The position numbers and the translations under genes were made by a program. The notes under the pieces are model-generated. The model was given only the letters and a program-made list of their open reading frames with translations. It was not told the origin of the DNA and searched no databases. A stretch of 64,000 nucleotides of DNA from an uncultured Trueperaceae bacterium (lineage in GTDB: Bacteria > Deinococcota > Deinococci > Deinococcales > Trueperaceae), in contig CAWCXJ010000006.1 in NCBI GenBank assembly GCA_963799485.1, positions 416,001 to 480,000 of the forward strand, given 5' to 3'. Below are positions 2,846 to 43,799 of the stretch, one piece after another. Position 1 is the first letter of the stretch. The number at the start of each line of letters is the position of its first letter.

Positions 2846-3544
2846 CTAACGCTGCCCCCGGCTCTGATCACCAAGTTGGCGCAAGGTAAAAACTGCCAGT
2901 AGCCCAAAACCTACCTTTGCGACGATATCCAGCACCGTATAGCTAAGCGCCTCCGGCGTCTCGCCGATCAGTCTAAGCCCTTCAGTGCTGAGAATCCAGA
3001 CGACGGGGTAGAGCGTCCAGAGGGTAAGGTGAACCGTCAAAAGGCGATCAAAGGCGGCTGAGTTGTCGGGATAGGTCTCTTTAGCCTGACGACGGTAGGG
3101 CCCGAGAAGCAGATAGACGATGGCGAGGTAAGCGCCCGTACTGACCAGATACCACACATAATTATACGGTTCGGCGACGAGCGTAGCCACGAGGCCGGTG
3201 GCAATCATAAATACGTCCGCACCCAGCAAGGCTGTTACTGTCGGCAGTCGCGAGCGGCCCAATGAGGTGAGCACAAGTACCAGCAGCGGGGTTGATAAGC
3301 CCCAGGTCACGTAGCGTACCCAAACAGTTCGGGTTCCGACACCCTCAGCGGCTTCAAAAGCGCCGTAGCCTGTTGCCATAACCAGGTAAAGTGCACTAGC
3401 AATAAGGCAGATGAAGAAGTTGAGTTGGAAAATCTTCGCTGTCCGTTCGTCTGCAGCTCGAGCCGCGCCGTAACCGAAGTAAAAAGCGCCTGCACTCATG
3501 CTGAACACACCGAACCAGTAAAGCAGTTGCGTCGTTGTTGTCAT
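2846..3544 (-). CDS. Microbial rhodopsin, cyanobacterial-halorhodopsin-like, TSV motif (predicted chloride pump)
   Basis: Seven TMs; helix C RYVTWGLSTPLLVLV; helix F VHLTLWTLYPVVW; helix G DIVAKVGFG with retinal Lys; AAGGAG RBS before ATG 3544. Confidence 0.92.
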   Translation of the reverse strand: MTTTTQLLYWFGVFSMSAGAFYFGYGAARAADERTAKIFQLNFFICLIASALYLVMATGYGAFEAAEGVGTRTVWVRYVTWGLSTPLLVLVLTSLGRSRLPTVTALLGADVFMIATGLVATLVAEPYNYVWYLVSTGAYLAIVYLLLGPYRRQAKETYPDNSAAFDRLLTVHLTLWTLYPVVWILSTEGLRLIGETPEALSYTVLDIVAKVGFGLLAVFTLRQLGDQSRGQR

Positions 3545-3793
3545 AATAGCTCCTTGTGAAGTCCGCGCGGGCATCAGCCCGCGCGGTAGTCGAGTTTGTA
3601 CTAGCTTGAGTTTGTACTGCAATTTCGCGCTGAACCGACGTTGTGGCGCTTTACCTTCTTCGTAACTACGTTTTAGCGTGGCAGCGCGGTGCTCTGTTTT
3701 TGCCCAGAGGTTTTCGAGCCGGTTGACGCCAGCTTCGTTCCAGCGAAGGTTGTGCCCTTGCGTGAACAAGATGCGCCTTCGCTGGGCTGCCTT

Positions 3794-9860: not shown

Positions 9861-10979
9861 TCACTTTACCCGCAGCAAGGTAAACCAGAAACGACTGCCC
9901 TCGCCCAACCGGCTTGTTGCCCCGATGGTTCCGCCCTGGGCTTCGGCGTAGTGCTTGGCGATGGTAAGTCCCACGCCACTTCCGCTCCCTTCTTGAGAGA
10001 ACCGCGACGGGTCGCCACGAAAAAAGCGGGTAAAGATGTAAGGGAGCAGGGCTTCGGAAATCCCCTCGCCGTTATCGTGGACGTTCATGGTGACCCGGTC
10101 GGGGTCGCTTGCATCGGCCCAGATCGTCACCTCGCCGCCGGTTGAGGTGTGCCTGAGGGCGTTCGTAAGCAGGTTGGCCAGAATTTGCGCGGTGCGCTGG
10201 GGGTCGACGTTTACCATGAGGTCGGGGGGTATCGGGAGACAATGTAGACGTACGCCTTTAGCGGTAAAAAGAGGCCTCAGCGCTGCGAGGGTTTGCTTGC
10301 AGACACGCTCCAGACTGATCTGCTCGAGCCTGATCGCACTTTGCTTTTCAGCCCGGTCAACTTCGGCAAGGTCGCTGACCAACCGCTCGAGGCGCGCGAC
10401 CTCCCTTAAACTCACCGCGATCGTTTCGTCTTCAAGGGTAAAAAGGCCGTCTTGAAGCCCCTCGAGGTTGCCCCGTAAACTGCTTAGCGGGGTGCGAAAC
10501 TCGTGTACCACGTTGCCGAGGACTTCGGTACGCTGAGCCTCAGCTTGGTTTAACGCCGTAACCATAGCGTAAAAAGAACGGGTCAAGTCGCCGATTTCCC
10601 CCGGAGCGGAGACTTGACCTACCTCGTATTGCCCCGACGCAACCCGGCGACTTGCGCTTTGCAAACGCCGCAGGGGTGAGACGATCTGTCTGGTGATAAA
10701 GAGACCGACGCCGCCGGCTACAAAGGTCGCTGCGAGCGCGCCCCAAAGCAGTGACTGGCTAAAGGTGCGGCGGTACGCCTCGCGGAGGTTCGCCAGCATC
10801 GGGTCGGTTCCCTGAGGCAGATTATGAAGTGTAAAGCCCATACTCGCGAGGTGCCGCTCAGCTAAAAAACGACCGAAGATTTCGCTCGTCCCCAGCAGTG
10901 TAGCGCTACCTACCAAAATGACCAGCACATAAGAGACGAACAGCCGCCAATACAAACGGGAGCTTTGCCGGGTCTTCAA
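9861..10979 (-). CDS. Sensor histidine kinase (HAMP, BaeS-like)
   Basis: HEFRTPL, NLLTNA, DNGEG, GSGVGL boxes; two TMs. Confidence 0.95.
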   Translation of the reverse strand: MKTRQSSRLYWRLFVSYVLVILVGSATLLGTSEIFGRFLAERHLASMGFTLHNLPQGTDPMLANLREAYRRTFSQSLLWGALAATFVAGGVGLFITRQIVSPLRRLQSASRRVASGQYEVGQVSAPGEIGDLTRSFYAMVTALNQAEAQRTEVLGNVVHEFRTPLSSLRGNLEGLQDGLFTLEDETIAVSLREVARLERLVSDLAEVDRAEKQSAIRLEQISLERVCKQTLAALRPLFTAKGVRLHCLPIPPDLMVNVDPQRTAQILANLLTNALRHTSTGGEVTIWADASDPDRVTMNVHDNGEGISEALLPYIFTRFFRGDPSRFSQEGSGSGVGLTIAKHYAEAQGGTIGATSRLGEGSRFWFTLLRVK

Positions 10980-11668
10980 GCGCCCTCCTCGGCGAGCTTG
11001 TAGCCGACGCCGCGAACGGTAAGCACCCGCGTCGGTGTGTCGGGGTCGGCCTCCAACCTGCGCCGCAGATGAGAGATGTGCACGTCCACCACCCGGTCTA
11101 CGCCGGTAAAATCAGGACCCCAGACCCGGTTTAAGAGTTCATCGCGGCTGAACACGCGGCCCGGTTGGCGCATCAAGGTGTAGAGCAGTTTGAACTCGAG
11201 GACGGTCAGCGCGAGCGGCGTACCCGCACGGGTGACTGTTCGCTTACCAAAATCGAGCTGCAAAGAGCCTGCGGTGAGTACCGCGTCGTCGCCTTCGTCC
11301 GGCAATTCGGTGCGGCGCAGCACCGCTTTGACCCGCGCCACGAGTTCGCGTGGGCTAAAAGGTTTGGTCACGTAATCGTCTGCGCCTAGCTCGAGACCCA
11401 AGATGCGGTCGTTTTCTTCCGTGCGTGCAGTAAGCATGATAACGGGGGTGCGCTGCTCTTGGCGCAGCCGCCGCATAAACTCGAGGCCGTCTAAACCCGG
11501 TAACATCCAGTCGAGTACGATAAGTGCCGGTGGTTCGGTAAGCGTACGCTTTAGAGCAAACAGACCGTCGGCTGCTACTGCGACGTCGAAACCTTCCCGT
11601 TCCAGATACGCTTTTAGCGCGCGGACGATACCGGGGTCATCTTCGACGACCAGGATTTGGCCTTTCAT
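10976..11668 (-). CDS. OmpR-family response regulator
   Basis: EDD, LDWMLP, GADDYVTKPF, RVVDVHI, TVRGVGY. Confidence 0.97.
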   Translation of the reverse strand: MKGQILVVEDDPGIVRALKAYLEREGFDVAVAADGLFALKRTLTEPPALIVLDWMLPGLDGLEFMRRLRQEQRTPVIMLTARTEENDRILGLELGADDYVTKPFSPRELVARVKAVLRRTELPDEGDDAVLTAGSLQLDFGKRTVTRAGTPLALTVLEFKLLYTLMRQPGRVFSRDELLNRVWGPDFTGVDRVVDVHISHLRRRLEADPDTPTRVLTVRGVGYKLAEEGA

Positions 11669-11835: not shown

Positions 11836-13150
11836 TGGTCACCAGCCGGTAGACTTTTCCGGTGTTACCCTTCGGCCCTTCCGTCTCTTTGGTCAGCACA
11901 TACGGCTCATCGCTGGCGTTTTGACCAAAAGCGAGCAGACGACCCGGCAACAGTCCGCCTTCTTCACCGCCGACTACCTGAAGCTGCCTGAAAGACCACA
12001 TACCCGTTTCGGAGGGCGTCGCACTCAGCAGCACGCCGTGGTGATTTTCTGCGGACCCGGCGTGGTTGCCGAAAAGATATTGACCTTCGTAGATAAGTGT
12101 TGCCACGGTAGATACAGCCGCCGATAATGGCGATGCCTACGTCGTGGCTTTGCTCGAGCACCGGGTCGATCAAGGGTGTACCGTCCGGTGTGCTGTCCGG
12201 ACAATTTTCCGGCGGTTGTTCAGGCGTTTGTGTCGAAAAGCAGTGCGCTCCCTCTTTAACGTGCCAGCTGTAGTTGCCCCCTTTTTGGACGATGTTGACC
12301 TCTTCAAAAAGCTCTTGCCGCAAGTCGGCGGTGTAGAGTGTTCCGTCTTGGTCGAATGAGAGAGCCCATGGGTTGCGAAGGCCGTAAGCCCACACTTCTT
12401 CAGCGCCGTTTTGTCCGACAAAGGGATTGGCCTGGGGAATAGCTGTAAGCTTTGCCCCCTTGCCGGGCATCGACGTCAATACGCAAGAGCGTACCTAACA
12501 GGTTCGTAGCGAGGCCTTGAGCGTTTCCGCCGTCGCTGACCTCGTACCAGTTGTCGATGTGGCCCACGTCCTCGTCGTTTGCGCCGCCGTCGCCTAAAGA
12601 AATATAGCGATAATCGTCCGGTCCAAAAGCAATCTGCCCGCCGCTGTGGTTGAGTTGCAGCTCATCGACGCGGAGCAAGACCCGCTCTGAATCTGGGTCT
12701 GCGCGGTTGGGTTCGTCTGAGACGCTAAACTCCGAGACGTGGCTCGTACTGCTCCAATCCGAGAGTGCGCTTTTCACGTAGGGGTGCGCTGTAATAGACG
12801 TAGAAACGCCCGTTTTGCGCGTAATCGGGGTGAAACGCCAGTCCCAGAAAGCCGCGTTCGTCGTAACTTTCGTTTGGGTCGACCAGCGCATCACGAAGGT
12901 CGAGAAAAGGCTGTGTGATGAGTTGACCGTTCGCGTCTATAATCTTGATAACGCCGATTTGGTCGACCACGAGAAGCCGCCCGCTGTCGTCCGGAGACGG
13001 TACAAGCACCGTCGGCGCGGTAAAGCCCTCGGCGACTAGCTCGAGCCCTATTTGCGGTGTCTGGGCGAAGCCGGTGTTTGCCGTTATAAGAATAGCTGCG
13101 AGCACGCCGGTTCCAAGTAAACGAGACGGAAGAAAAGGGGGCTTGACAGC
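11828..13150 (-). pseudogene. Frameshifted PQQ-dependent sugar dehydrogenase family gene
   Basis: Motifs ERGFLGLAFHP, NHSGGQIAFGPD, AYGLRNPW and AFGQ..DEPYVL are spread over four ORFs (12725..13327, 12400..12894, 11964..12479, 11828..12106). Confidence 0.85.
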
Positions 13151-13190
13151 GGGTTGTCCTTTCAGTTTTGCGCGCACAAAGTTGCAAAAC

Positions 13191-13222
13191 CGCCGGGCTT
13201 TACGGCTGGGTAAAGCCCGGCG
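13191..13222. repeat. Perfect 13-bp inverted repeat (hairpin downstream of the csp gene)
   Basis: CGCCGGGCTTTAC-GGCTGG-GTAAAGCCCGGCG. Confidence 0.7.
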
Positions 13223-13403
13223 ACATACAAATATGCTTGATTCAGATGTAGTTGGTTCAGGTGTGGCTAGTTCAAATCGGCAAGCCGGCGAATAGACCCT
13301 CGGGTGTGTGAGAACTCGATCCCTCACCAGACAACCGGGATACCGACGCTGCTGTCGGCACCTCGGTTGTAATCGCTTTAGACAACGGTTTTAGACAGTA
13401 GCT

Positions 13404-13814
13404 TCAGACCTTCGGCCCAAGCTGTTGCAAAAGTGCGTTACACGCTTCTTCGCAGCTCCGGCAGCTTTCCATACACACCTGACAGTGCGCGTGCATGTCT
13501 TTATGCTTTTCGCACTCGCTGCCGCACAGCTTGCACGCCGTCATGCACGCCTCCAACTGTGCGCGCAAAAGCGTCATCTCGGGTTCGGTCTGGCGCGACA
13601 GGACTCGCGCGGTAGTGTCACAGATATCGGCGCAGTCGAGGTTCTGCCGAATGCAGTAGCGTAAGTCGGCCACCATCTCTTCGGACAAACAAGCGTCGGC
13701 GCACGACGTGCAGATTTGCGCGCACTCGAACGCCGAGTCGATAACTTTTGTCAAGGCGCTGATATCTACGTTCATGGGTTTCGGGTGTTCCCCCAACATA
13801 CGCTGTGTGTTCAT
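13404..13814 (-). CDS. Four-helix-bundle copper storage protein (Csp3/DUF326-like)
   Basis: 16 Cys in CxxxC/CxxC arrays; HAHC; no Tat signal; GGAGG RBS. Confidence 0.92.
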   Translation of the reverse strand: MNTQRMLGEHPKPMNVDISALTKVIDSAFECAQICTSCADACLSEEMVADLRYCIRQNLDCADICDTTARVLSRQTEPEMTLLRAQLEACMTACKLCGSECEKHKDMHAHCQVCMESCRSCEEACNALLQQLGPKV

Positions 13815-13962
13815 TTTTTTCCTCCAAAACGGTATCGTACCAACCAAAATTTTGACGTGTCTGCCGCTACTCCGCTGCCCCTTTCTTAAGTATTAGTAGA
13901 CCTTAACAAGAAAACGCAAAACCTTTATAAAGCACGGCTACTGTATTTTGGTAAAGGCGCTC

Positions 13963-15390
13963 TTACCCGCCGAAGACCCGCCCCAGATACTGTGTCACTG
14001 AAAGGGCAGTGCTCGGCAGTACCCCGAACAAGAGTGTGCCGAAGACGCTGATACCGAGCGCCAAAAGATACCCCGGCCAATTGGGAACACGACTCTCGGT
14101 CTCCGGAGCCCGCAGGTACATTTCCACGATGGGCAGCAGATAGTAGTACAAGGCCACGGCAAAGTTCACAATGGCAATGACGGCAAGCCAGGTCAGCCCG
14201 CCTGAAAGCGTAACGTCTAACAGCAAAACCTTTCCTGCAAACCCGGCGAGTGGCGGGATACCGGCGAGCGACAACAGCGACAGGGTAAGGCCCACAGCTG
14301 CCAGGGGTGAACGTTGGCCCAAACCCCGTAGACCCCGCATCTCGTCACTGCCGGTGAGGCGCTCCAACTGCGCTGCAACGACAAATGCGCCCAGGTTCAT
14401 CAGCAGATACGCGAGCAGGTAGTAGCCAGCGGCGCTCAGAGCTGAAGGTACACGCTCAGCAACAGCGACGACCATTAGTACGTAGCCTGCTTGAGCGATG
14501 CTCGAGTAGGCCAACAGCCGTTTAAGCCGCGTTTGCCGCAACGCGATAAAGTTACCGAGGGTCATCGTCAGCGCAGCCAAGACAGCCACGGCAAGGGGCC
14601 AAGCGGCGAGCCCGCCCGGTAGCGCCACGAGGAGAAAGCGCAGCAGCGCTGCAAACCCCGCCAGCTTAGGGACGACCGTCAAAAACCCGGTGACGGGCGC
14701 AGACGCCCCGGTATACACGTCGGGCGCCCAGAAATGAAACGGCACCGCGGTAATTTCAAAGGCGTAACCGATTAGCACCAGACCGAAAGCGAGCGCCACC
14801 CAGACCCTATCCGCGCCTGCCAAACCTGCGCCAATCGCGGGCAGCGACAAGTTCCCGGTGAGGCCGTAAAGAAACGAAAGCCCGTAAGCCATGACCGCCA
14901 GGGCCACCGCGCCGTAGATAAAGTATTTAAGCGCTGCCTCGTTCGCCTCCCTGTTGGTTCGGACCAGCGCCACCAAGATGTACGAGGCCATGCTGAGCAG
15001 CTGCAAAAAGAGCACGATAAAGCCCAGATCGAGGCTGCTCGCCGCCAGCACTCCGCCGAGCGTCGAAAAGAGCAGCGCGACCGCCGCGTGCCCCTCTTTG
15101 CCCGTCCCGCGAAAATGTGACCCGATAGTAAAAATTGACAAGAGTGCGCCGAGCAGAATCAGGAGCTTAAAGACCGTACCGAAACCGTCTACCGCGTAGA
15201 CACCGCAAAAGACGGCCTGGTCTTGCCAAGAAAGCATCCGCACGCTAAAAACAGCTGCGGCGATAAGGCCGCAAACCGCCAAAAATACGACGACGTTTTG
15301 ACCCCGCCCTTTGCTCAGACCGGCAACCGGAACCAGCGCAAGCGCAAATCCTGCAAGAATCATCTCGGGCACAATCGCCCAGAGGTCCAT
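13963..15390 (-). CDS. nuoN: NuoN-like antiporter subunit
   Basis: EAALKYF, PFHFWAPDVY, KRLLAYSS, GIPPLAGFAGK. Confidence 0.92.
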   Translation of the reverse strand: MDLWAIVPEMILAGFALALVPVAGLSKGRGQNVVVFLAVCGLIAAAVFSVRMLSWQDQAVFCGVYAVDGFGTVFKLLILLGALLSIFTIGSHFRGTGKEGHAAVALLFSTLGGVLAASSLDLGFIVLFLQLLSMASYILVALVRTNREANEAALKYFIYGAVALAVMAYGLSFLYGLTGNLSLPAIGAGLAGADRVWVALAFGLVLIGYAFEITAVPFHFWAPDVYTGASAPVTGFLTVVPKLAGFAALLRFLLVALPGGLAAWPLAVAVLAALTMTLGNFIALRQTRLKRLLAYSSIAQAGYVLMVVAVAERVPSALSAAGYYLLAYLLMNLGAFVVAAQLERLTGSDEMRGLRGLGQRSPLAAVGLTLSLLSLAGIPPLAGFAGKVLLLDVTLSGGLTWLAVIAIVNFAVALYYYLLPIVEMYLRAPETESRVPNWPGYLLALGISVFGTLLFGVLPSTALSVTQYLGRVFGG

Positions 15391-15403
15391 GCACTCCACC
15401 GCG

Positions 15404-16885
15404 CTAACCGCCGCTTCCGATTCGGCTCAGCATGATGATCGTACCGTCCAACACCCGCAAGAACGGCCCCGGCAAAAGCCCAATCGCAAGTGACAGTGCA
15501 GCCAGCGGGATGACGGCTGTGGCCTCACGCGGATTCAAGTCGTGCACCTCGGGCATGTTGTCGGGCGCTGTACCCATCAAGAGAGCGGTGAGAATCTTTA
15601 GGTAAAGACCCGTCGAGATAATCAGTCCCAAAACGGCGACCAGTGCCAGCCAGATATTTACCGACAATGTTGCGCCGATCACCTGAAACTCGGCGACAAA
15701 GCCTGACAGCCCCGGTAAGCCCAACGACCCGAACGCCAGCAAACCCAGAAGACCGCTGTAAGCCGGTATTTTGCCGAGCAAACCGCCGAACCGTGCCAGC
15801 TCCCGTGTCCCTGCCTGATGCTGCAAAATCCCGGCCAAAAAGAACATCCCACCCGTCAAGAGGCCGTGGCTGATGGTTTGCAAGACCGCGCCGCTGAGGG
15901 CGAGCTGCCGCACGCCGGGGTCGCTTGAAAGTCCCCATACCGCCACGCCCAACAGCACAAACCCCATGTGGTTGACCGAGGTGTAGGCGATAAGGCGTTT
16001 GAGGTCGCTCTGCGCGAGCGCCGCCAGCGCCCCGTAAACGAGCGACACGAGTGCCAGCAGCATCAGTAACCAGGCGTACTGCCGCACCGTATCGGGCATG
16101 GTCGGGAGCATAATGGCTAAAAAGCCGTACGCCCCCATCTTGAGCTGAATCCCGGCGAGCATCACGCTGCCTTCGGTCGGCGCTTCGACGTGGGCGTCGG
16201 GCAGCCAGTTGTGGAGCGGCACGGTCGGCAGTTTGACGCCGAAACCGAGCAGTAAGCCCAAAAAGACCCAGAACCCGGTTGCTGAACCCGCGAAAGGCTG
16301 CGCCGCGCTGATGTCGGCGAGCGAAAAACTGCGCCCGCTCGCCAGGTAGAGCGCCAAAAAACTGAGCAGCATCGCCAAACTGCCGACGCGAGTATAGAGA
16401 AAGAACTTCAAGGCTGCGTAACGGCGGTTTTCGCCGCCCCAAATCCCGACGATAAAATACATCGGGACGAGGCCGATTTCGAAAAATAGGTAAAAAAGCA
16501 GCAGGTCGCGAGCCGCAAACAGTCCCAAGAGCCCGGTGCCCATCAGCAAAAACAAAAACGCATGTTCTTTAGCCCGGTCGCGCTCGGGCAGCACGTAAAC
16601 CATCGTCAGGGTCATCAGTAGCGCAGTTAAGACAATCAGCGGGAGTGAAAGTCCGGTGACGGCGACGTCATAGCTCGCACCCAAACTTGGAATCCACGGC
16701 GTAGTGGCGCGCCACTGAAGCTGCGGGCCGGCGGGATTGTAACCTATCCACAAAACGAGCGTCAAAAGCAGTGTCAGCAGCGACCCGGCGAGAGCCGTCC
16801 AGCGCATGGCGCGCGCTTTCTCTCGGGGTAGTGCGAGGACGACGAGCCCCGTTAGAAGCGGTAAAAAGATGGTGATACTCAGCAT
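15404..16885 (-). CDS. nuoM: NuoM-like antiporter subunit
   Basis: FFE, VKLPTVPLHNWLPDAHVEAPT, LKMGAYG, DLKRLIAY, GFVAEF. Confidence 0.95.
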   Translation of the reverse strand: MLSITIFLPLLTGLVVLALPREKARAMRWTALAGSLLTLLLTLVLWIGYNPAGPQLQWRATTPWIPSLGASYDVAVTGLSLPLIVLTALLMTLTMVYVLPERDRAKEHAFLFLLMGTGLLGLFAARDLLLFYLFFEIGLVPMYFIVGIWGGENRRYAALKFFLYTRVGSLAMLLSFLALYLASGRSFSLADISAAQPFAGSATGFWVFLGLLLGFGVKLPTVPLHNWLPDAHVEAPTEGSVMLAGIQLKMGAYGFLAIMLPTMPDTVRQYAWLLMLLALVSLVYGALAALAQSDLKRLIAYTSVNHMGFVLLGVAVWGLSSDPGVRQLALSGAVLQTISHGLLTGGMFFLAGILQHQAGTRELARFGGLLGKIPAYSGLLGLLAFGSLGLPGLSGFVAEFQVIGATLSVNIWLALVAVLGLIISTGLYLKILTALLMGTAPDNMPEVHDLNPREATAVIPLAALSLAIGLLPGPFLRVLDGTIIMLSRIGSGG

Positions 16886-16919
16886 GATGCCCCCACTGAA
16901 CTTGCTTTACGTTGATTTG

Positions 16920-18773
16920 TTACCACCACAGCAACCCTCCGACCAGGGCAGCCGCAACCCAAACGAACAGAACAAGCGTATAAAGGTAAAGCTTGCCGCT
17001 CTCGGTTACGCGCAGCCGTTCGCCGGAACGGCCCAGCAGGCGGGCGAACGCGTTGCCACCACCTGAAAACCCTGCTTGTTCGGCCCGCTCGGTTCCGGCA
17101 GCGGTGCTTGTAGCAGCGGCGGCGAGGCCGCGAGCCCCGCTGTCAAAGCTGCGCTCGAGCCTGTTCACGCCTGCTGCAACTGCTTGCACTGCGGTGACCG
17201 GCGCAGCGGTCACGGTGTCGAGGCCACGCCCTAGGCCTGTCGAAAACGCTCCAAAGGCAGGTACAGGGCCGTGCTGCAGCGTTCGCCAGCTCCCGAACAC
17301 AAGCCCTGAAACGCTCGCCGCTACTGCCCAGAAGCTCCAGACGGCACGAACCTCCAGCGCTTCGGCAAAGTTCAACGAGGACTCGAGGGGCCCCACTAAC
17401 AACCAGCCTGCGACAAGTGCAAGCACCGCCAAAAGAACCATCGGCAAGGCCATCCACACGCCCGGTCTTTTACCGGTCGGTTTCGGCGCATCCGGCCAGG
17501 AGAGAAAGGCCGCCACACCCGCCCGGCTGATATATACCCCCGCGAGAAAAATCACCAGCAGTAAAAATGCACCGGCAAACGGACTTACAAACACAGCCCT
17601 TGCCAGAATCGCCTCTTCGCTCCAAAAGGCGGAAAAAGGTGGAAGCCCTGCCAGTGTCAAGCCCGCCGCTGCAAACACCCCAGCCGTTAGGGGAAGTTGT
17701 CGCCAGAGTCCGCCCATCTTCCGCAGGTCGTAACCCCCGGCGACGTGCCCGACCGCGCCCGCCGTAAGAAATAGCGCCGCCTTGAAGAGCGCCTGCATAC
17801 TCAGGTGAAACGCAGCCGCAAAAGCGCCGCCCAGTCCCAGCGCGAAAAACATCTCACCGAGTTGTGAAACCGTAGACCACGCCAAAACCTGTTTCAGATC
17901 GGTCTGCACCGTAGCGACGAGGGCGGCAAAAAGTGCCGTTAGTGCGCCCAGCCAGAACACCAGCGCAAGTACACCTGGGGCCGCCTCGTAGAGCGGAAAG
18001 AGCCGCAGGGGCAGATAAACACCTGCAGCTACCATCGTCGCGGAATGAATCAGCGCCGAGACGGGCGTCGGGCCGGCCATCGCGTCGGGTAGCCAAGCTG
18101 TTAGTGGGAGCTGGGCGCTTTTGCCGAGCGCCCCGAGGAGTAAGAGGAAAGCAGCGAGTGTCGCAGTGCCCAAAGGCAATTCGCCTATAGCGCCCAAAGT
18201 TGTCTGAATGTCGGTTGTCCCGACCGCTAAGAGCAGCAGCAGCCACCCGAGTAGCAGACCAAGGTCGCCTAAACGGGTCATCAGAAAGGCTTTGCGCGCC
18301 GCTTCTTTCGCGTCGATTTGGCTGTACCAGAACCCGATCAGCAAATACGATGCGAGCCCGACGCCTTCCCAGGCGGCAAACAAAAGTACCATAGAGTTGC
18401 TTAAGACAAGCGTCAGCATTGCGCCGATAAAAAACGACAGGGTGCTGTAAAAACGCGGTTTGCCCTGTTCATCAGCCATGTAACCGACTGCGTATATCCC
18501 GACGAGTAGCCCGACACCCGCCACCAACACTGCCAGCAGGTATGAAAGTGGGTCGAGGCTGAGACCCACCGTCAGGGTATAGGGGCCGATCACCAACCAC
18601 TGCGCCGTCACGCTGGGTTGCGACCCAAAGAGGATAAGCAAAAGCGTCAGCGAGACGCCGGTTGCACCCGCACTCAGCCAACCGCCGCCACTGGGTAACC
18701 GCTTTCTAAGAACAAAGATAACAAGCGCCATCAAAAGCGGTACGAGCGGTGTAGCGATAACGAGCGCCGTCAC
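16920..18773 (-). CDS. nuoL: NuoL-like antiporter subunit
   Basis: WEGVG, KSAQLP..WLPDAMAGPTPVSALIH, transverse helix and final TM. Confidence 0.95.
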   Translation of the reverse strand: MTALVIATPLVPLLMALVIFVLRKRLPSGGGWLSAGATGVSLTLLLILFGSQPSVTAQWLVIGPYTLTVGLSLDPLSYLLAVLVAGVGLLVGIYAVGYMADEQGKPRFYSTLSFFIGAMLTLVLSNSMVLLFAAWEGVGLASYLLIGFWYSQIDAKEAARKAFLMTRLGDLGLLLGWLLLLLAVGTTDIQTTLGAIGELPLGTATLAAFLLLLGALGKSAQLPLTAWLPDAMAGPTPVSALIHSATMVAAGVYLPLRLFPLYEAAPGVLALVFWLGALTALFAALVATVQTDLKQVLAWSTVSQLGEMFFALGLGGAFAAAFHLSMQALFKAALFLTAGAVGHVAGGYDLRKMGGLWRQLPLTAGVFAAAGLTLAGLPPFSAFWSEEAILARAVFVSPFAGAFLLLVIFLAGVYISRAGVAAFLSWPDAPKPTGKRPGVWMALPMVLLAVLALVAGWLLVGPLESSLNFAEALEVRAVWSFWAVAASVSGLVFGSWRTLQHGPVPAFGAFSTGLGRGLDTVTAAPVTAVQAVAAGVNRLERSFDSGARGLAAAATSTAAGTERAEQAGFSGGGNAFARLLGRSGERLRVTESGKLYLYTLVLFVWVAAALVGGLLWW

Positions 18774-19081
18774 CCGCGTAGCTCCGCGAAGTCGTCAACC
18801 TGCGCGGTCTGCCGGGTGCGGTAGAGCATCATCATGATGGCCAGCCCGATGGCCATTTCAACGGCTCCCAGGGTCACGATGATAATCAGAAAAATCTGCC
18901 CGGAATAGTCTACGGGTGCAACAAAACGCCAGAAAGCCACGATATTAAGCCCGACCGCGTTTAAGAGCACCTCGACGCCCATCAGGATCATGACTGCCGA
19001 ACGTTGCGCGATAACGGTGTAGATACCGATACCGAAGAGGATAGCAGCGACAATCAAAAAAGCTGTCAAGGGTAAAGTCAT
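18770..19081 (-). CDS. nuoK: NuoK-like subunit
   Basis: Three TMs; MGVEVLLN and AVEMAIGLA with both conserved Glu. Confidence 0.93.
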   Translation of the reverse strand: MTLPLTAFLIVAAILFGIGIYTVIAQRSAVMILMGVEVLLNAVGLNIVAFWRFVAPVDYSGQIFLIIIVTLGAVEMAIGLAIMMMLYRTRQTAQVDDFAELRG

Positions 19082-19962
19082 GCGTTGTCCTCCAACGGTT
19101 TCAAGGTGTCATCCTCGAGTTCAGACGGCATTTCGTCCTGCCCTACACGTACCTCGCGTCCTTTGTCCGACGGATGACGGTCGGGCCGGGCGATATACAC
19201 CGCGCCGAAAATACCCACTAAAATCAGGAAGCCCGCCCCCTCGAACGCCATCATGTACTTGCTCATCAGCAAGTCCCCGACCTGCTTCGCCGAATCGGGG
19301 TTGGGCAGCGCGTCCATAACGGGCCACGCCGGTCGCAGCAAAAGCAGCAACACGAGCAGCGCGCCCGTCGCTAAGCCGAGCCACACTGCGTAGGGGCGCA
19401 CCGGTGTGACCATTGACATATCCATGTCGCCCATATCCATGTCGCCGTGATTCATGCCCTCGTGGTTCATCTCGCCGTCATCACTATGATCTTCGTCCTC
19501 TTGAGGACCCTCATCGCCCGCACCTTGCTCACCGGATGACATGTCGTGATGCGCGTGCTGATGGTTTTGCTGCTCATCGTTAGCTTCGGCATTTTGACCT
19601 AGGTTCTCGACACGGGACGCTTTCACGTCATTTTCTTCTTTGGGTAGCAGACCTCGACTAAAAAAGTTTTCAACCGGGGCCATGTCCATCCCCGCCATCA
19701 TGCTGCCGCCGGGGTCGTGCATCAAGAGCACCATGAAAAGCACCATCACCAGCATCCCGCCGATATACATCATGATTTGCAGGAGCCCCAAGAGGTCGGC
19801 GGAGAGCAGGATAAAGAGCCCCGACACCCCGATAAACGACGCCATCAGGAAGATGCCGCTGCGAAACATGCTCATCGTTGTCGCCATGCCGAGCGCACCC
19901 AAAATGGCAATCAGCGACAGCAAGCCGAAGGCAAATATTTGGGCTACAGCTCCCAAAATCAT
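19078..19962 (-). CDS. nuoJ: NuoJ-like subunit with His/Met/acidic insertion
   Basis: QIMMYIGGM (TM3), VGDLLMSKYMMAFE; start by ATGA overlap with the nuoH stop. Confidence 0.88.
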   Translation of the reverse strand: MILGAVAQIFAFGLLSLIAILGALGMATTMSMFRSGIFLMASFIGVSGLFILLSADLLGLLQIMMYIGGMLVMVLFMVLLMHDPGGSMMAGMDMAPVENFFSRGLLPKEENDVKASRVENLGQNAEANDEQQNHQHAHHDMSSGEQGAGDEGPQEDEDHSDDGEMNHEGMNHGDMDMGDMDMSMVTPVRPYAVWLGLATGALLVLLLLLRPAWPVMDALPNPDSAKQVGDLLMSKYMMAFEGAGFLILVGIFGAVYIARPDRHPSDKGREVRVGQDEMPSELEDDTLKPLEDNA

Positions 19963-20858
19963 GCCGGCCCTACGCCTAAAAGGATAAGCCCACCGACCAG
20001 CAGCACATTGACCATGCCGACGGGAATCAGCACGCGCCACGAGAGCTGAAGCATCTGGGCGGTGCTGAGCGGTTTGACGAGTCGCCCCAGGCCGAGCATC
20101 AGCGTCATTACCCCGAAGGTTTTGACAAGCATCCAGACCGGCGCAGGCAGCCACGGCCCCTGCCAGCCGCCCAGATAAAGTACGGCTCCCATCGCTGAGA
20201 CGGCGAAAAACAGTCCGGCAAGTACAAGACGCCAGACAAGCGCCTGCCAGCCGCCGACTACGCCCAGCACACCGCCACCGATGAACCGGGAAAACGGTTC
20301 CATAAAGGGTGCGCGGTACGCCTGCATCAGTCCGGTAACAAGGTAAAGCGCAAAGCCGACGGGCTGGAGCACTACAAACCATAAACTGCTCTGGCTTTCG
20401 ACGATGCTTACAATAGATAAAGACTCCGCCATCATGATCGCGCCGACATAGGCAAGCCCCAGCGGGACGATGTAGGCGACGAGCTGCGCGGTGATGCGGT
20501 AGTACGCGTCTACCGCGTCCGGTATGTTCGCGCCCCAACCCGTAAGCGCCACGCCCAGGACGACATAATCGACCACGACGATAAAGTAAAACGCGCCGAT
20601 ACCGATATCTTCTGCGACGAGGCCGGGGCCGAAAGGAATGACGACGAGGGCGAAGGACACGCCTAAGAGCGCCGAGACTGCACCTGCTGGGTAGAGCCAG
20701 CGGTCGGCGCTAAGGAGTTTGGCATCTTCCCGGATATGCGGCGCAGTCGCCGGCCCTAACTCGGCGCGGCGGCGCATGAACCGCTCGAGCCCCATCGTCC
20801 CCAATCCGCCGACAACGAGCGTTGCAAGAACGAAAAGCGCACCCGTAACTATTCCCAC
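19959..20858 (-). CDS. nuoH: Degenerate NuoH-like subunit
   Basis: ER, ADRWLY, IPFG, AQLVAY, RAPF, YLGGW, VKT, QML..SW; GTG start inferred. Confidence 0.85.
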   Translation of the reverse strand: MGIVTGALFVLATLVVGGLGTMGLERFMRRRAELGPATAPHIREDAKLLSADRWLYPAGAVSALLGVSFALVVIPFGPGLVAEDIGIGAFYFIVVVDYVVLGVALTGWGANIPDAVDAYYRITAQLVAYIVPLGLAYVGAIMMAESLSIVSIVESQSSLWFVVLQPVGFALYLVTGLMQAYRAPFMEPFSRFIGGGVLGVVGGWQALVWRLVLAGLFFAVSAMGAVLYLGGWQGPWLPAPVWMLVKTFGVMTLMLGLGRLVKPLSTAQMLQLSWRVLIPVGMVNVLLVGGLILLGVGPA

Positions 20859-21166
20859 TCGAGCCCCCCCATCGCCCAGGCGTAGGTAATTCCGGTTGAA
20901 AGAATCGCGATAAAAACGAGCATGTCTAAAAAGGCCTCGAGCCCTCTTTCGGCGAATACCACCGCCCACGGATACATATAGATCATCTCCATGTCGAACG
21001 AGAGGAATATCAGCGCGTAGACGACGTAACCAAAGCGAAACTGTGCCCACGCTGCGGGCGCTTTTAAGAGCCTCGCTTGCGGTCGCCAAAAGGCCGCGCC
21101 GAGCAGCGCAAGCCCGGCGGCGATGAGAGCCAGCAGACCGACGACGGCGTAACTGCCGAGAATCAC
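20849..21166 (-). CDS. nuoA: NuoA-like subunit lacking the YECG loop
   Basis: ALIFLSFDMEMIYMYPWA, YAW..GGLEW. Confidence 0.9.
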   Translation of the reverse strand: MILGSYAVVGLLALIAAGLALLGAAFWRPQARLLKAPAAWAQFRFGYVVYALIFLSFDMEMIYMYPWAVVFAERGLEAFLDMLVFIAILSTGITYAWAMGGLEWE

Positions 21167-21379: not shown

Positions 21380-21814
21380 TTAGCGACGTGTCAGCGTAAA
21401 ACCTGCCCGCTGCCAAGCGATCATGCCACCCTGCAAATCCGTCACGTCGGTGTACCCGAGCCTGAGCAGCGTCTTTGCCGCAATCTCCGACATCCGACCG
21501 CTCATACAGTAGACGGCGATCTTCGCCGCTTTGTCTTGCGGTAAGCGGGCGCGCTGCGACGCAATTTTGTCGAAGGGGACAAACGTGTCGGTTCCCGGAA
21601 GTTCACCCTCGTAGGGAATATGGACGTTGATTAGCACAACATCATTCGTGTTCTCTAGCACGGCTTTCAACGTTTTTGGAGGCACAAGGTCGTAGGTACC
21701 AAAAGGTGTCGTGACGCTTTGCGCGGGTGCAGTTGTTCCCTGCGCTTCGACGTGAGTCCCTGCCCCGAACCATAACCCTAGCGCGACAACGGCGTACAGC
21801 AGCTTGAAGCTCAT
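21380..21814 (-). CDS. Exported rhodanese-like protein
   Basis: Signal peptide (VEA-Q); VYCMSGRMS, LQGGMIAW. Confidence 0.9.
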   Translation of the reverse strand: MSFKLLYAVVALGLWFGAGTHVEAQGTTAPAQSVTTPFGTYDLVPPKTLKAVLENTNDVVLINVHIPYEGELPGTDTFVPFDKIASQRARLPQDKAAKIAVYCMSGRMSEIAAKTLLRLGYTDVTDLQGGMIAWQRAGFTLTRR

Positions 21815-22015: not shown

Positions 22016-22603
22016 TTATGAGTGCGACACAGACAGCGGTTGTGCGGAGCTGCGTACCTGCCTTATCCGACCAAGCAAGACGGTGATTCCTAGCAGGGCA
22101 AGGCTGGTGAGGAGTAAAAATGCGGCGTAGCCGAGCGGCTGGACGTATTCCGGTACGTCACGTGCGAAGCCGTCTTCAAAACGCGCCGATACAGTTTTCG
22201 ATAAAGCTTCCCCACGGCCTGATGGGGGCGACACATTGACCGTCAGCCAGGTCACCAGACCGGCTTGTCCTGGACCGTAGCGCAGATAAACGTTCCAGTC
22301 GCCCGGTGCCGGAAACGTATAGCGGAGCCGGTAGACCCCGGGCGCGCTGGGCTGGAGTACCCGGCGCTTGTAACGTCCTGCCTGACTGAGCGACAAGTAG
22401 AGTTCGCCGCGGTTGGCGCTGCCGGGCTCGAGGCGCACCTCAACCAAGCTTGGCTGCTCGGCCCCACTGCTGGTGATGGAAACGGTAGCAACCGGGGCGT
22501 TCGGGTCAACGGTCCGTTCACGGTTCGGCTCATGAGCCAAGCCCGGCGGCAGGGCCGTGAAACACAAAACCATAAACGTCCGCACTATAAACGTCCGCAT
22601 CAC
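22016..22603 (-). CDS. Exported protein with predicted mature N-terminal His, beta-rich domain and C-terminal TM
   Basis: Signal ...PPGLA-HEP; PGVYRLRYTFPAPGDWNV; C-terminal hydrophobic helix. Confidence 0.8.
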   Translation of the reverse strand: MMRTFIVRTFMVLCFTALPPGLAHEPNRERTVDPNAPVATVSITSSGAEQPSLVEVRLEPGSANRGELYLSLSQAGRYKRRVLQPSAPGVYRLRYTFPAPGDWNVYLRYGPGQAGLVTWLTVNVSPPSGRGEALSKTVSARFEDGFARDVPEYVQPLGYAAFLLLTSLALLGITVLLGRIRQVRSSAQPLSVSHS

Positions 22604-23691
22604 AGCTCGGCCCGCTTGGTTACCAGCGCCTTGCGAGAACGTGAAGCCGCCCTAGTCTCATCGGCGGTTCCGCTTGTGGTCTCGCCACGAAGTGCAGCTG
22701 CCACCCACGCACCTAACCAACCCATTAGCGCAGCTAAGCTGAGGCCCGGTAGCGCAGCTTGCAAGAGTACATCCGGGTACCAAACAATCCCCTCGCCAAA
22801 AGCGATAAGTAGCCAGTTGGCGGCGAGCATCACCGCACCGGCGACCAGCCCGAGCAACCAGGCCGGCAGGTTCCGGCGACTTAGTAAATCGACGGCTAGG
22901 CCCGAAAAAATCACAAGCGAAATAAGGGGCCGGGTAGCCCCTGCCCAACCTAGGCCGGCTGTCGTTATCAGCCAAGCTGCTAGACCCAGCCGGAACACCG
23001 TGTAAAGAATTGTAGTTACAGTAGCGGCCCACCGCCCCAGCGCCAACCGGCTTACCAGCAAGAAGACAAACGGAGGTAAGCCTACGAGCAGCACGGGGTG
23101 CCAAAAACTCGGAAACTGCGGGGTATTGAAGTCAAATTCTGCCAGTAGGAGTACCAGCCAGCCGAGTAGTGCAGCTGCGAAAAAAAGGGTCACGCCACTC
23201 AGTAAGTGCCTGCGGCTTTCACTTAAACGGCGTTCGAGCCAGGCGCTTACCAGGCCACCGAAGCTCGCAAGCGTAAGGCCTAAGATTCCAATGAGATGCA
23301 TCGGTGCCCAGAGCGTAACGTCGATGCCGAACAGCTCGTGCCAGAGTTCATCTAGTGGTGCAAACAGCAGCTCGAGCGCGGCACCGACAGCGACGATGAG
23401 GATACCGGGGTGAAGCCTGAGCTTACCCAGGCGCAGATGAAAGGGGGTGTTGCGGCGGTCGCGCAGAAGGCCGTAAAAGCTCGTTAAGAGTACGACGGCA
23501 ATACTCGAGTAAAGAAAATTGTGTGGCAAGGTAAAAAAACTATCACGCCCGATATCGATATGCCACGCTATATCCCAGTAAATACCGAGCAGTCCGGCAA
23601 GTGCGCCCAAGCTTAACACCGGCAAAACACCAAGCGCCCAAAGGTCCGGGCGGTCTTTTCCTGCTAACGTCGCCACTTCAGGGGTGTCCAC
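22600..23691 (-). CDS. Polytopic membrane protein with PmoC-like copper motifs and PmoA-like C-terminal half
   Basis: DIAWHIDIGRDSFFTLPH and DELWHELFGIDVTLWAPMH; AAGGAG RBS. The CDS is solid; the functional label is inferred. Confidence 0.7.
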   Translation of the reverse strand: MDTPEVATLAGKDRPDLWALGVLPVLSLGALAGLLGIYWDIAWHIDIGRDSFFTLPHNFLYSSIAVVLLTSFYGLLRDRRNTPFHLRLGKLRLHPGILIVAVGAALELLFAPLDELWHELFGIDVTLWAPMHLIGILGLTLASFGGLVSAWLERRLSESRRHLLSGVTLFFAAALLGWLVLLLAEFDFNTPQFPSFWHPVLLVGLPPFVFLLVSRLALGRWAATVTTILYTVFRLGLAAWLITTAGLGWAGATRPLISLVIFSGLAVDLLSRRNLPAWLLGLVAGAVMLAANWLLIAFGEGIVWYPDVLLQAALPGLSLAALMGWLGAWVAAALRGETTSGTADETRAASRSRKALVTKRAEL

Positions 23692-23808: not shown

Positions 23809-24129
23809 TCAACCTTTGTACTTGAGCGCTTCCATTAGTTCGTCTACGATATGCTCGGTATCGCCGCGCAAGATAGCGGTCGAAACGTGGTCTCTGACAT
23901 GTGCGCGCAGCACCTTGTCGTTGACTTTAGTCAATGCCCCTTGTACCGCGCTCAGCTGTTTCATCACATCGACGCAGTAAACGCTCTCGTCTCCCAGCAT
24001 CCGCAAGATACCCTCGAGATGCCCCTTGGCACTTTTAAGCCGCAAAACGGCATCTTTGCGTGTTTCAGGGTCGAGATGAAGGCATTCCGAGGCGACAAGC
24101 GCCTCGGTTGCTTCAGCGTTGGGGGTCAT
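23809..24129 (-). CDS. csoR: Copper-sensing repressor CsoR
   Basis: RLKSAKGHLEGI, YCVDV, HVRDHV (Cys-His-His type as in Thermus). Confidence 0.93.
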   Translation of the reverse strand: MTPNAEATEALVASECLHLDPETRKDAVLRLKSAKGHLEGILRMLGDESVYCVDVMKQLSAVQGALTKVNDKVLRAHVRDHVSTAILRGDTEHIVDELMEALKYKG

Positions 24130-24329
24130 CCCGTTTTGAGCGTAGCCTGATAACCTTCGTCTTCGACGGCGGCGATCAGCGCTTCAGGTGAAGCCGTACC
24201 TTCAACTTCAGCCGTGCCGTCGGAAAGGTCGACGTGCGCTTTTTGGGTACCCGCGACAGACTCGAGCGCCGAGGTGACCGCTTGCTGACAATGTCCACAG
24301 GTCATACCGGAAATATCTAGCTTTGTCAT
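24126..24329 (-). CDS. copZ: Copper chaperone
   Basis: GMTCGHC HMA motif, 67 aa; GGAGG RBS. Confidence 0.95.
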   Translation of the reverse strand: MTKLDISGMTCGHCQQAVTSALESVAGTQKAHVDLSDGTAEVEGTASPEALIAAVEDEGYQATLKTG

Positions 24330-24346: not shown

Positions 24347-24367
24347 CCCCCCCCACCTGGGGCGGGT
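24347..24367. promoter_or_regulatory. CsoR operator (copZ promoter)
   Basis: CCCCCCCCACCTGGGGCGGG C/G-tract pseudo-palindrome. Confidence 0.75.
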
Positions 24368-42540: not shown

Positions 42541-42544
42541 GATA

Positions 42545-43665: not shown

Positions 43666-43799
43666 ACTCGTGTACTGCGAGCCCTTGTCGCTCAGGTGAA
43701 GGCTAAGAGCCTCTGAGCTTTGCTCTAACCTGGTGATGGATCAGCTTAGAGATGTGGCGCTGTTTGGTTGCTATGCTTAGCGCCTGAAGCACGAGGTCG

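Follow-up and report, generated by a model that had tools for sequence, protein, structure and literature searches.

The window analysed here is a 64-kb stretch of DNA (64,000 nucleotides (nt), contig CAWCXJ010000006.1, positions 416,001 to 480,000) from an uncultured Trueperaceae bacterium. At positions 13963–21166 it contains seven minus-strand genes that encode homologues of the membrane subunits of complex I in the order nuoA-H-J-K-L-M-N (open reading frame (ORF) list and Pfam scan; Table 1). The listed NuoH and NuoJ ORFs were over-extended, and we re-read their starts from the DNA (GTG at 20858 and ATG at 19962, respectively). With these starts, nuoA and nuoH overlap by 10 nt, nuoH and nuoJ by 4 nt (ATGA), and the J/K and K/L pairs by 4 nt each, while gaps of 34 nt and 4 nt separate nuoL from nuoM and nuoM from nuoN. 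All seven ORFs are intact, and the window ORF list holds no extra small ORFs inside the cluster. Because the ORFs overlap or nearly abut, there is no space for remnants of nuoB, C, D, E, F, G, or I. An earlier reading of this stretch made from the letters only (hereafter, the sequence-only reading) had described seven intact, tightly coupled membrane subunit genes, with nuoA/nuoH and nuoH/nuoJ overlaps free of remnants of nuoB–G and nuoI, and the DNA bears out both points.

The host genome (3.66 Mb, 99.99% complete) encodes exactly one NuoB, one NuoC, and one NuoD, all of them in a canonical 14-gene nuoA-N operon on contig C7, and whole-genome searches returned no orphan nuoB, C, or D copies of the kind that the sequence-only reading had considered as possible partners. 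There are two NuoH copies and eight Proton_antipo_M genes in the genome, the latter comprising three canonical genes, three in this cluster, and two in an Mrp-type locus on contig C5. The cluster subunits share only 26–44% identity with the canonical paralogues of the same genome.

A conserved and mobile seven-gene module

Protein searches with the window NuoH returned at least 408 clusters at E ≤ 1e-3 among 7999 scored candidates, and those with NuoJ at least 406 clusters at E ≤ 1e-10 among 8000 candidates. The 120 NuoH matches listed have 62–100% identity and lengths of 249–307 amino acids (aa), most of about 298 aa; named members among these matches belong to Deinococcus, Rhodopseudomonas, Methylobacterium/Methylorubrum, Streptomyces, and Noviherbaspirillum. 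A representative library at 50% identity leaves so few rows for the family (of 2174 matches at E ≤ 1e-3, 17 reach E ≤ 1e-30) that it gives no useful family size. Within the phylum, this NuoJ type was present in seven of 201 sampled genomes, this one included; the genus of the host is represented by two more genomes, and both lack it.

A search covering one genome for each species yielded 31 related loci (designated by L numbers) from at least eight phyla, the taxa being Deinococcota, Cyanobacteriota, Chloroflexota, Pseudomonadota (alpha and gamma), Actinomycetota, Bacteroidota, Ignavibacteriota, and a 'delta proteobacterium'; two Actinomycetota loci belong to the family. In tblastn comparisons with the window proteins, the gene order A-H-J-K-L-M-N with nuoA abutting nuoH recurs in 30 of the 31 loci. 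Subsequent counts refer to 29 distinct loci, L012 being a duplicate of L010 and L031 having been set aside (37% match, 1.5 kb between nuoA and nuoH); L006, L007, and L013 run off the contig end. Three plasmids, two from Methylobacterium and one from Rhodopseudomonas, carry the module; they are typed as mobilizable or conjugative and are metal-resistance plasmids. Locus L014 is also a plasmid, from Deinococcus. The sources of the members include soil, concrete, sediment, freshwater, and the sea.

The closest relative, L004 from a Truepera metagenome-assembled genome (MAG), is 78–92% identical at the amino acid level, and the ratio of non-synonymous to synonymous substitution rates (dN/dS) in this comparison is 0.05–0.10 for all seven genes, demonstrating purifying selection; against L005 the ratio is 0.07–0.18 with dS near saturation. 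Across the eight phyla, each subunit retains 35–92 invariant columns. A quick maximum-likelihood analysis of NuoH, with 28 family proteins and 28 canonical proteins from the same genomes, splits the two groups with an SH-aLRT support of 100; the family forms one clade on a long stem, the branch joining it to canonical NuoH measuring 1.52+1.09 changes per site. Because of this separate clade and the 26–44% identity to the host's own paralogues, we rejected a recent duplication of the host nuo operon as the origin of the cluster. The sequence-only reading had also allowed for a one-off arrangement under relaxed selection, and neither the recurrence of the gene order nor the dN/dS values agree with this.

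We also considered that the cluster might be the decaying, functionless leftover of a nuo operon duplication. Ten of the 29 loci (L009, L014, L016, L025, L026, L028, L030, L032, L033, and L034) have an interruption in one or more of the seven ORFs, which may reflect long-read error or decay, many of these loci being long-read MAGs, and a probable pseudogene adjoins the cluster in the window. Nevertheless, with seven intact ORFs in the window, low dN/dS, the many invariant columns, and a single long-stemmed clade distant from the host's own nuo genes, we reject this explanation and assign it next to no probability. We conclude that the system is real, conserved, and mobile.

Three further observations concern relatives of the module. 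In the Bacteroidota locus L024 (1931–8938), canonical-type nuoH, K, L, M, and N genes (26–44% identity) lie directly upstream of, and on the same strand as, the headless module, i.e. the module without the genes for the peripheral arm. A relative of 397 aa (P0139) has both NuoJ and NuoK Pfam domains and may be a J-K fusion or a read-through. Finally, several representatives of ~300–318 aa (P0246–P0256) are 32–42% identical to the window NuoH, score above canonical NuoH, and may represent further short-NuoH, possibly headless, subfamilies.

Losses and gains in NuoH, NuoA, NuoJ, and NuoK

We aligned the family proteins with canonical NuoH, NuoA, NuoJ, and NuoK taken from 20 host genomes. In NuoH, the canonical proteins share eight carboxylates (E158, E210, D217, E220, E222, E224, E232, and E245 in the numbering of the host's own operon) that are invariant or nearly so (seven in 28/28, D217 in 27/28), and most or all of the 28 family members have a non-acidic residue at each of these positions; E158 is replaced by V or I, and E210 by Q, in 28/28. 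R300, R305, R307, and D309 are lost as well, and the family proteins are ~49 aa shorter, with a mean of 299 aa versus 348 aa for 28 canonical proteins. Relative to E. coli NuoH (7nyh_H), the Glu of 'SYE' is changed to Ile and a 21-residue loop to PFMEPFSRFIGGGVLGVVGG; the carboxylates of the loop between transmembrane helices (TM) 5 and 6, the E157-equivalent, and a segment of the TM1-2 loop are all gone. In NuoA, the TM1-2 loop is shortened, the canonical Tyr-Glu is deleted or replaced, and the Pfam match begins at profile position 33. In complex I, the quinone cavity is built from these NuoH carboxylates and loops together with the NuoA loop, and the same elements form the E-channel entry and the contact surface for NuoB and NuoD. 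The loss of these residues and loops suggests that NuoH and NuoA of the family operate without quinone chemistry.

Other functional residues are retained. These include D58 and E60 of NuoA, E37 and E75 of NuoK (E in 27/27 canonical proteins), Y66 of NuoJ, and E25, R121, Y129, R182, and K246 of NuoH. Of the channel residues checked in NuoL, NuoM, and NuoN, 11 of 13 are kept. NuoM has all four (E136, K218, K249, and E399), NuoL has four of five (TM5 Glu, TM7 Lys, TM8 His, and TM11 Lys), and NuoN has K245 and K390. In scores against profile models, NuoL, NuoM, and (barely) NuoN pass the TIGR complex I subfamily cut-offs in NCBIfam, while NuoA (60.7 bits, cut-off 163), NuoH (123, cut-off 399), and NuoJ (67.7, cut-off 174) are far below the equivalog cut-offs. 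Mrp models also score far below their cut-offs, e.g. MrpA with 312 versus 1104 bits.

The family has also gained methionines. About 20 Met residues in NuoJ, NuoK, NuoA, and NuoH are invariant in the family and rare or absent at these positions in the canonical subunits. In TM3 of NuoJ, positions 64, 65, 70, 73, and 77 are Met in 25/25 family and 0/25 canonical proteins, which have I, V, I, L, and V there, respectively; because M70, M73, and M77 are spaced i, i+3, i+7, they lie on one helix face. Further family-invariant residues are M30, M32, M40, M233, and M237 in NuoJ; M76 (beside E75), M83, and M84 in NuoK, none of which is Met in any of 27 canonical proteins; M59, M61, M64, and M99 in NuoA; and M178 (Ala in 28/28 canonical proteins), M223, M243, M254, and M269 in NuoH. 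For NuoA and NuoH, the comparison was with the three commonest canonical residues at each position, and Met was not among these. In total, invariant Met number 5 in NuoA, 7 in NuoH, 16 in NuoJ (start Met excluded), and 5 in NuoK, versus 3–4 each in the much larger NuoL, NuoM, and NuoN, and the Met content of NuoJ is 9.5% versus 3.0% in canonical NuoJ. A conserved Cys/His cofactor-binding motif was not found in the transmembrane parts of NuoA, H, J, and K in the family alignments.

NuoJ has in addition gained an insert in the TM3-TM4 loop, which is present in 25/25 full-length sequences and at which canonical NuoJ, including the E. coli and cyanobacterial alignments, is gapped. Across the family, the insert is mostly His/Met/Asp-rich and comprises 42–206 residues with 0 Cys, 0–28 His, and 6–31 Met, contains repeats of the MDHGxM, MDHGDM, and MDHSQMQHG types, and is bordered by the motifs PGGxMMAxMxM...FSxGL and GMDMSMxTPxK/R, of which PGGxMMAxMxM and MxM-x-TP are invariant. 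From an AlphaFold2 model of NuoJ (25-row alignment), we used only the secondary-structure string, which consists of five long helices with residues 104–185 unstructured. The canonical NuoJ topology puts the TM3-TM4 loop on the cytoplasmic side. Based on this topology and on the Arg/Lys residues at both ends of the loop (positive-inside rule), we predict a cytoplasmic location for the insert, at the surface that would normally receive the peripheral arm.

The retained residues in NuoK, NuoA, and NuoJ, the complex I-type scores of NuoL, NuoM, and NuoN, and the presence of NuoD in 27 of 28 host genomes would also be compatible with an alternative membrane arm that docks onto the single canonical peripheral arm of the genome (NuoB–G and NuoI) to give a second, perhaps copper-tolerant, complex I. 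However, such an arm would lack the quinone-cavity and interface elements of NuoH and NuoA, its docking face would be filled by the NuoJ insert, and a module that crosses phyla and plasmids would have to fit very different peripheral arms; moreover, NuoA, NuoH, and NuoJ fall far below every NCBIfam equivalog cut-off. We therefore regard a borrowed peripheral arm as highly improbable. With 27 of the 28 hosts carrying NuoD, its co-occurrence with the module is uninformative as to independence from the Q-module.

While the sequence-only reading assumed a novel arrangement, the gene order turns out to be less new and has been in print since 2012. The parts of the paper by Penn & Jensen (PMC3314556) available to us describe a 'second partial NDH-1 operon' in Salinispora with seven genes of the membranous portion, in which NuoJ is annotated as hypothetical; the operon is reported as horizontally acquired and grouping with Actinobacteria and Proteobacteria, and a tree legend also names Cyanobacteria, Chlorobi, and Deinococcus-Thermus. 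These authors propose an ion pump aiding marine life, and, in the excerpts at hand, the 'marine adaptation' label is repeated for Streptomyces (PMC6676996, PMC8622039) and Kocuria (PMC6002675). Similarly, the accessible sections of Bird et al. 2021 (PMC8233155) describe, within the cop gene set of Marinobacter atlanticus, a group of seven nuo-like genes that rose along with copper genes on electrodes, and the authors speculate on copper redox energy. As far as these excerpts go, the Salinispora, Streptomyces, and Kocuria operons share with the window cluster the seven genes in order, a divergent NuoJ, and a patchy horizontal spread, and the Marinobacter cassette likewise has seven nuo-like genes, which sit among copper genes and are expressed together with them. 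The window NuoH shares 67% identity with a Streptomyces protein.

By its order, NuoJ insert, and patchy distribution, the window cluster is of the 'partial NDH-1 operon' type; that the Salinispora, Kocuria, and Marinobacter cassettes belong to the same family we infer from their descriptions. The published proposals differ from ours in invoking a proton/sodium pump or copper-redox energy, and the available portions of these papers do not mention the quinone-site losses, the Met ladder, or the His/Met loop. Literature searches joining nuoJ, copper, and methionine-rich features found no paper, those on nuoA/nuoH/nuoJ with copper resistance or csoR found none describing residue changes, and PMC4758237 and PMC13707694 hold nothing on the nuoAHJKLMN module. 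Thus, the gene arrangement is already published, while the residue losses, the Met ladder, the His/Met loop, and the copper-exporter reading developed below are new.

Genes around the module

The sequence-only reading placed the cluster between copper genes, and the annotation agrees: a gene for a DUF326 protein starts the downstream flank 116 nt from nuoN, and genes for CsoR, CopZ, and CopA lie 2.6–4.2 kb upstream (Table 1). We take DUF326 to be the Csp copper-storage family. Homologues of the DUF326 gene adjoin the module in L010, L011, L013, and L014, and homologues of the response regulator and histidine kinase genes flank it in L005, L010, L014, and L028. The listed copZ ORF was over-extended to 24449, and its likely start is the ATG at 24329. 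The window CsoR scores 44.9 bits against the RicR model (cut-off 175); its expected ligands are Cys51, His76, and His80, i.e. C-H-H rather than the classic C-H-C, a pattern that presumably resembles that of Thermus CsoR. Three genes between csoR and nuoA, for a secreted rhodanese, a YtkA-like protein, and a 363-aa membrane protein, are not conserved beside the module in related loci.

Table 1. Positions of the module and of neighbouring features in the window
Feature	Positions	Strand	Details
nuoA-like	20849..21166	-	105 aa, GTG start; Pfam Oxidored_q4 5.3e-20
nuoH-like	19959..20858	-	299 aa, GTG start; Pfam NADHdh 1.1e-34
nuoJ-like	19078..19962	-	294 aa, ATG start; Pfam Oxidored_q3 4e-24
NuoJ TM3-TM4 loop insert	19399..19710	-	residues ~85-188; His/Met/Asp/Glu-rich, no Cys; predicted disordered
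nuoK-like	18770..19081	-	103 aa; Pfam 5.1e-23
nuoL-like	16920..18773	-	617 aa; Pfam 2e-65 and Proton_antipo_N
nuoM-like	15404..16885	-	493 aa; Pfam 9.7e-70
nuoN-like	13963..15399	-	478 aa; Pfam 1.1e-61
Cys-rich four-helix-bundle protein, DUF326, Csp copper-storage-like	13404..13847	-	16 Cys; Pfam; TIGR04401 43 bits, cut-off 100
Secreted rhodanese	21380..21814	-	between csoR and nuoA
YtkA-like protein	22016..22603	-	between csoR and nuoA
Polytopic membrane protein	22600..23691	-	363 aa, 8 His, 0 Cys; no Pfam/NCBIfam match
CsoR-family metal-sensing repressor	23809..24129	-	Pfam Trns_repr_metal 2.3e-21
copZ copper chaperone	24126..24329	-	HMA domain; NF047957 CopZ 93.8 bits, cut-off 85
GC-rich palindrome CCCC-ACCT-GGGG, candidate CsoR operator	24347..24366	.	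~20 nt upstream of copZ
CopA-type P1B ATPase	25402..27924	+	two HMA domains; Pfam; divergently transcribed
OmpR-type response regulator	10976..11668	-	Pfam
Histidine kinase	9861..10979	-	Pfam
Glucose/sorbosone dehydrogenase (GSDH), probably a frameshifted pseudogene	11964..13327	-	split over three overlapping ORFs in different frames
DUF4396 protein	7379..9511	-	710 aa; Met-rich C-terminal DUF4396 membrane domain (27 Met, 0 Cys); N-terminal part without assignment
Bacteriorhodopsin-like gene	2846..3769	-	
Phage-integrase fragment, DDE_3 transposase, HTH_33/HTH_32, rve fragment	42131..44157	-	~21 kb from the module

In the related loci, we surveyed the 233 ORFs within 5 kb of the module at the 29 loci using Pfam. 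A copper or heavy-metal domain was present at 13 of these loci: DUF305 in L004 and L006; DUF326 and CsoR in L010; DUF326 and DUF305 in L011 and L013; DUF305, CopZ, and CsoR in L014; a P1B-ATPase in L016; CopCD and CDF in L017; HMBD and ZnuABC in L019; YHS in L025 and L033; multicopper oxidase, CopB (PcoAB), and CusB/OEP (CusBC) in L027; and CsoR and CopCD in L029. DUF305 is the family of the copper-binding protein CopM, as described in the part of PMC4335983 available to us. As a control, the 28 host genomes (~128 Mb) contain 48 DUF305 matches, from which ~0.1 would be expected in the 0.28 Mb of flanks, and we found DUF305 there in five genomes. A DUF305 gene ends 27 nt before nuoA in L010, L011, and L013, and the distance from the end of a CsoR gene to nuoA is ~35 nt in L014 and ~100 nt in L029; this spacing suggests that the DUF305 and CsoR genes are co-transcribed with the nuo module. 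In the Rhodopseudomonas plasmid, 135 nt separate the module from an upstream DUF305 gene, and CusA, DmeF, and metal-sensing repressors are encoded nearby.

A palindrome of the form CCCC-N4-GGGG, which we take to be the CsoR operator type, occurs once in the window, upstream of copZ, and at eight sites in total in related loci (scan at 70% self-complementarity with 4-nt flanks). In L005 the palindrome stands 61 nt ahead of nuoA, and in L004 it immediately precedes the unit formed by DUF305 and nuoA; a longer-spaced version is present in L028. At 80% self-complementarity with 6-nt flanks, the scan returned no site in the window and missed the site in L005. The position of the window palindrome before copZ-csoR is consistent with its being a candidate CsoR operator.

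No gene other than the nuo genes accompanies the module throughout. In an all-against-all BLAST of the 233 flanking ORFs and the window neighbours, in which we searched for a constant partner gene, no cluster was present in more than eight loci, the largest being those of cytochrome c (eight Bacteroidota/Ignavibacteriota loci), histidine kinase (seven), and response regulator (five), so that the seven nuo genes are the sole constant unit across the 29 loci. The cytochrome c gene lies directly downstream of nuoN, on the same strand in six cases, and only in Bacteroidota/Ignavibacteriota loci (L021, L022, L025, L030, L033, and L034 at about 16850–17550; L023 and L032). In five of these loci, a 136–143 aa protein without assignment precedes nuoA, and an OYE flavoprotein, a CcmF-like protein, and a YHS protein are encoded further upstream in some Bacteroidota/Ignavibacteriota loci. 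The Bacteroidota/Ignavibacteriota loci are thus a different, conserved context for the same module.

The cytochrome c genes raise the question of whether the module could be a redox- or otherwise-driven pump with a new non-Nuo partner, such as a c-type cytochrome or copper redox chemistry. The available sections of PMC8233155 suggest copper redox energy, and the island in the window provides two further candidates in the unassigned 363-aa membrane protein and the 710-aa DUF4396 protein. Yet no partner gene is common to the 29 loci, the transmembrane parts of NuoA, H, J, and K have no conserved Cys/His cofactor motif, and the remodelled face is directed to the cytoplasm, on the opposite side of the membrane from the periplasmic cytochrome c. 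Taking these points together, we find a non-Nuo partner very unlikely.

Proposed function of the module

Compared with the membrane arm of complex I (NuoA-N), the cluster has the same seven subunits in canonical order, with NuoL, NuoM, and NuoN each best matching their own orthologue, and it keeps the NuoK, NuoA, and NuoJ residues listed above as well as most NuoL/M/N channel residues. It differs in the absence of NuoB/C/D/I/E/F/G, of the NuoH quinone-cavity carboxylates, and of the NuoA loop, in the added Met and the NuoJ insert, in channel changes in NuoN and NuoL, and in the sub-cut-off scores of NuoA, H, and J. The nearest functional analogue is Mrp (Mnh/Pha), which is likewise redox-free, composed of antiporter-like and small subunits, and driven by the proton gradient. 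However, Mrp consists of MrpA-G with MrpE/F/G and no NuoH or NuoA homologue, while the cluster has NuoH and NuoA, its subunits match Nuo over Mrp models, the genome has a separate Mrp-type locus, and the proposed substrate differs. MBH, MBX, FHL/Hyf, Ech, Fpo, and cyanobacterial NDH-1 share the modular reuse of complex I membrane subunits; in contrast to this cluster, all of them keep NuoB/D/I-type subunits on the NuoH homologue. With the Q-module absent from the cluster, NuoH and NuoA present, and Mrp scores below cut-off, the statement of the sequence-only reading that the set fits neither the complex I-like nor the Mrp class holds.

Because there is no redox module, an ion gradient is the only available energy source, which points to a secondary transporter with an Mrp-like build and a complex I origin. 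The module appears self-sufficient, given that its order recurs in 30 of 31 loci, that no flanking gene is common to the 29 loci, and that orphan NuoB, C, and D are absent. Cu(I)/Ag(I) is suggested as the substrate by the Met enrichment in NuoA, H, J, and K, by the Cys-free His/Met loop, and by the copper genes and regulators nearby, while CsoR-type control together with the cytoplasmic loop favours export. Carriage of the module by metal-resistance plasmids speaks for the same reading, and the joint rise of the Marinobacter atlanticus cassette and copper genes provides an independent experimental hint. Our working hypothesis, to which we give even weight for and against, is that the cluster specifies a stand-alone membrane arm, derived from complex I and free of redox chemistry, that would function as a proton-driven exporter of Cu(I) and probably Ag(I). 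With somewhat less than even confidence, we further propose that the complex I/Mrp superfamily would here have its first transition-metal transporter, with an E-channel turned into a thioether-lined Cu(I)/Ag(I) path coupled to several H+ per ion. The sequence-only reading had inferred that a membrane machine was repurposed, for example as a transporter of ions or metals or as a pump driven by a non-Nuo partner from the island; the residue losses, the Met gains, and the copper context favour the former branch, and for the latter there is no constant candidate.

From the gene content, conservation, residue changes, genomic context, and mobility documented above, we outline substrate, direction, coupling, and regulation as follows. 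In complex I, NuoH/A/J/K form the 'E-channel' module. Protons would flow inward through NuoL, NuoM, and NuoN, in which the Lys/Glu chains are largely intact, and this flow would drive Cu(I) outward through the NuoH/A/J/K module. The His/Met/Asp loop of NuoJ would take up cytoplasmic Cu(I), with CopZ as a possible donor, and pass it on to the TM3 Met ladder. At three to four H+ per ion, the driving force would be comparable with that of ATP hydrolysis. Copper would induce expression via CsoR and/or the two-component system. Met ladders or pairs in TM helices and Met/His-rich capture regions are features of CusA (HME-RND), which is proton-driven, of Ctr1 with its MxxxM motif, and of the N-terminus of Enterococcus hirae CopB, and Met/His motifs are also carried by Pseudomonas CopA/CopB and Enterococcus CopB. 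The NuoJ ladder and repeats recall the chemistry of CusA, Ctr1, and CopA/CopB in the absence of sequence homology, and we treat this resemblance as a lead rather than as support.

Several observations weigh against a copper exporter. No recognised metal gene lies within 5 kb of the module in 16 of the 29 loci, and the Bacteroidota/Ignavibacteriota loci carry cytochrome c and OYE genes instead of metal genes. The interrupted ORFs in ten loci and the NuoD encoded by 27 of 28 hosts, which keeps a borrowed peripheral arm compatible with the data, also count on this side. In the proposed proton path, the TM12 Lys of NuoL is changed to Glu386 in 26/28 members, and in NuoN the TM5 Glu is changed to Gln133 and the TM7 Lys to Glu215, each in 26/26 members. 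The NuoJ AlphaFold2 model (pLDDT 54.9, pTM 0.29) is too poor to place the Met residues in three dimensions. Moreover, Met/His motifs are commoner in periplasmic than in cytoplasmic Cu(I) sites, and the affinity of Met-only sites for Cu(I) is below that of the Cys sites in CopZ. Because the placement of the loop rests on canonical NuoJ topology and the positive-inside rule, the transport direction could be wrong.

A related possibility is that the module is a monovalent-cation/proton antiporter or proton-handling device (Na+, K+, pH) that is Mrp-like and has no role in copper handling, as implied by the 'marine adaptation' label. It would agree with the homology to Mrp/complex I antiporter modules, with the Na+/H+ exchanger genes near the module in L020 and L026, with the 16 loci without recognised metal genes, and with the ion pumping proposed for marine actinomycetes in the available portions of PMC3314556 and later papers. 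On the other hand, Na+/H+ transport leaves the ~20 invariant Met of NuoA/H/J/K and the Cys-free His/Met loop unexplained, copper genes are strongly enriched around the module, an Mrp-type locus exists elsewhere in the genome, and a marine trait is difficult to reconcile with members that also come from soil, concrete, sediment, and freshwater. We therefore consider monovalent-cation transport unlikely.

If the copper-exporter reading is correct, the module would represent a new class of copper/silver exporters, mobile across phyla, beside P-type ATPases and RND pumps, that is, an ATP-independent copper pump with a high driving force that is spread by plasmids. It would also correct the literature label of a 'marine adaptation gene', which the context data do not support. 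More generally, research on complex I still centres on the question of how the NuoH/A/J/K junction drives antiporter-like subunits that lie far from it, and a conserved natural version without the redox arm offers a simple experimental handle on the coupling between the E-channel and the antiporter-like subunits. The gain of the present analysis lies in the mechanistic reading and in the specific residues that it offers for mutation.

Finally, we note some other features of the island (Table 1). The island that holds the copper genes and the nuo module also includes a bacteriorhodopsin-like gene, and L014 carries the same set, consisting of rhodopsin (6561–7277), DUF4396, Csp-like, histidine kinase/response regulator, CopZ, CsoR, and nuoA-N genes; a light-driven pump travelling with a putative proton-consuming exporter is a curious pairing. 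The 710-aa DUF4396 protein is 60% identical to an ORF of L014 and may be another copper-linked membrane protein. The GSDH gene, probably a frameshifted pseudogene, lies between the two-component genes and the Csp-like gene, and further from the module the window holds fragments of a phage integrase and of an rve domain together with a DDE_3 transposase and HTH_33/HTH_32 domains.

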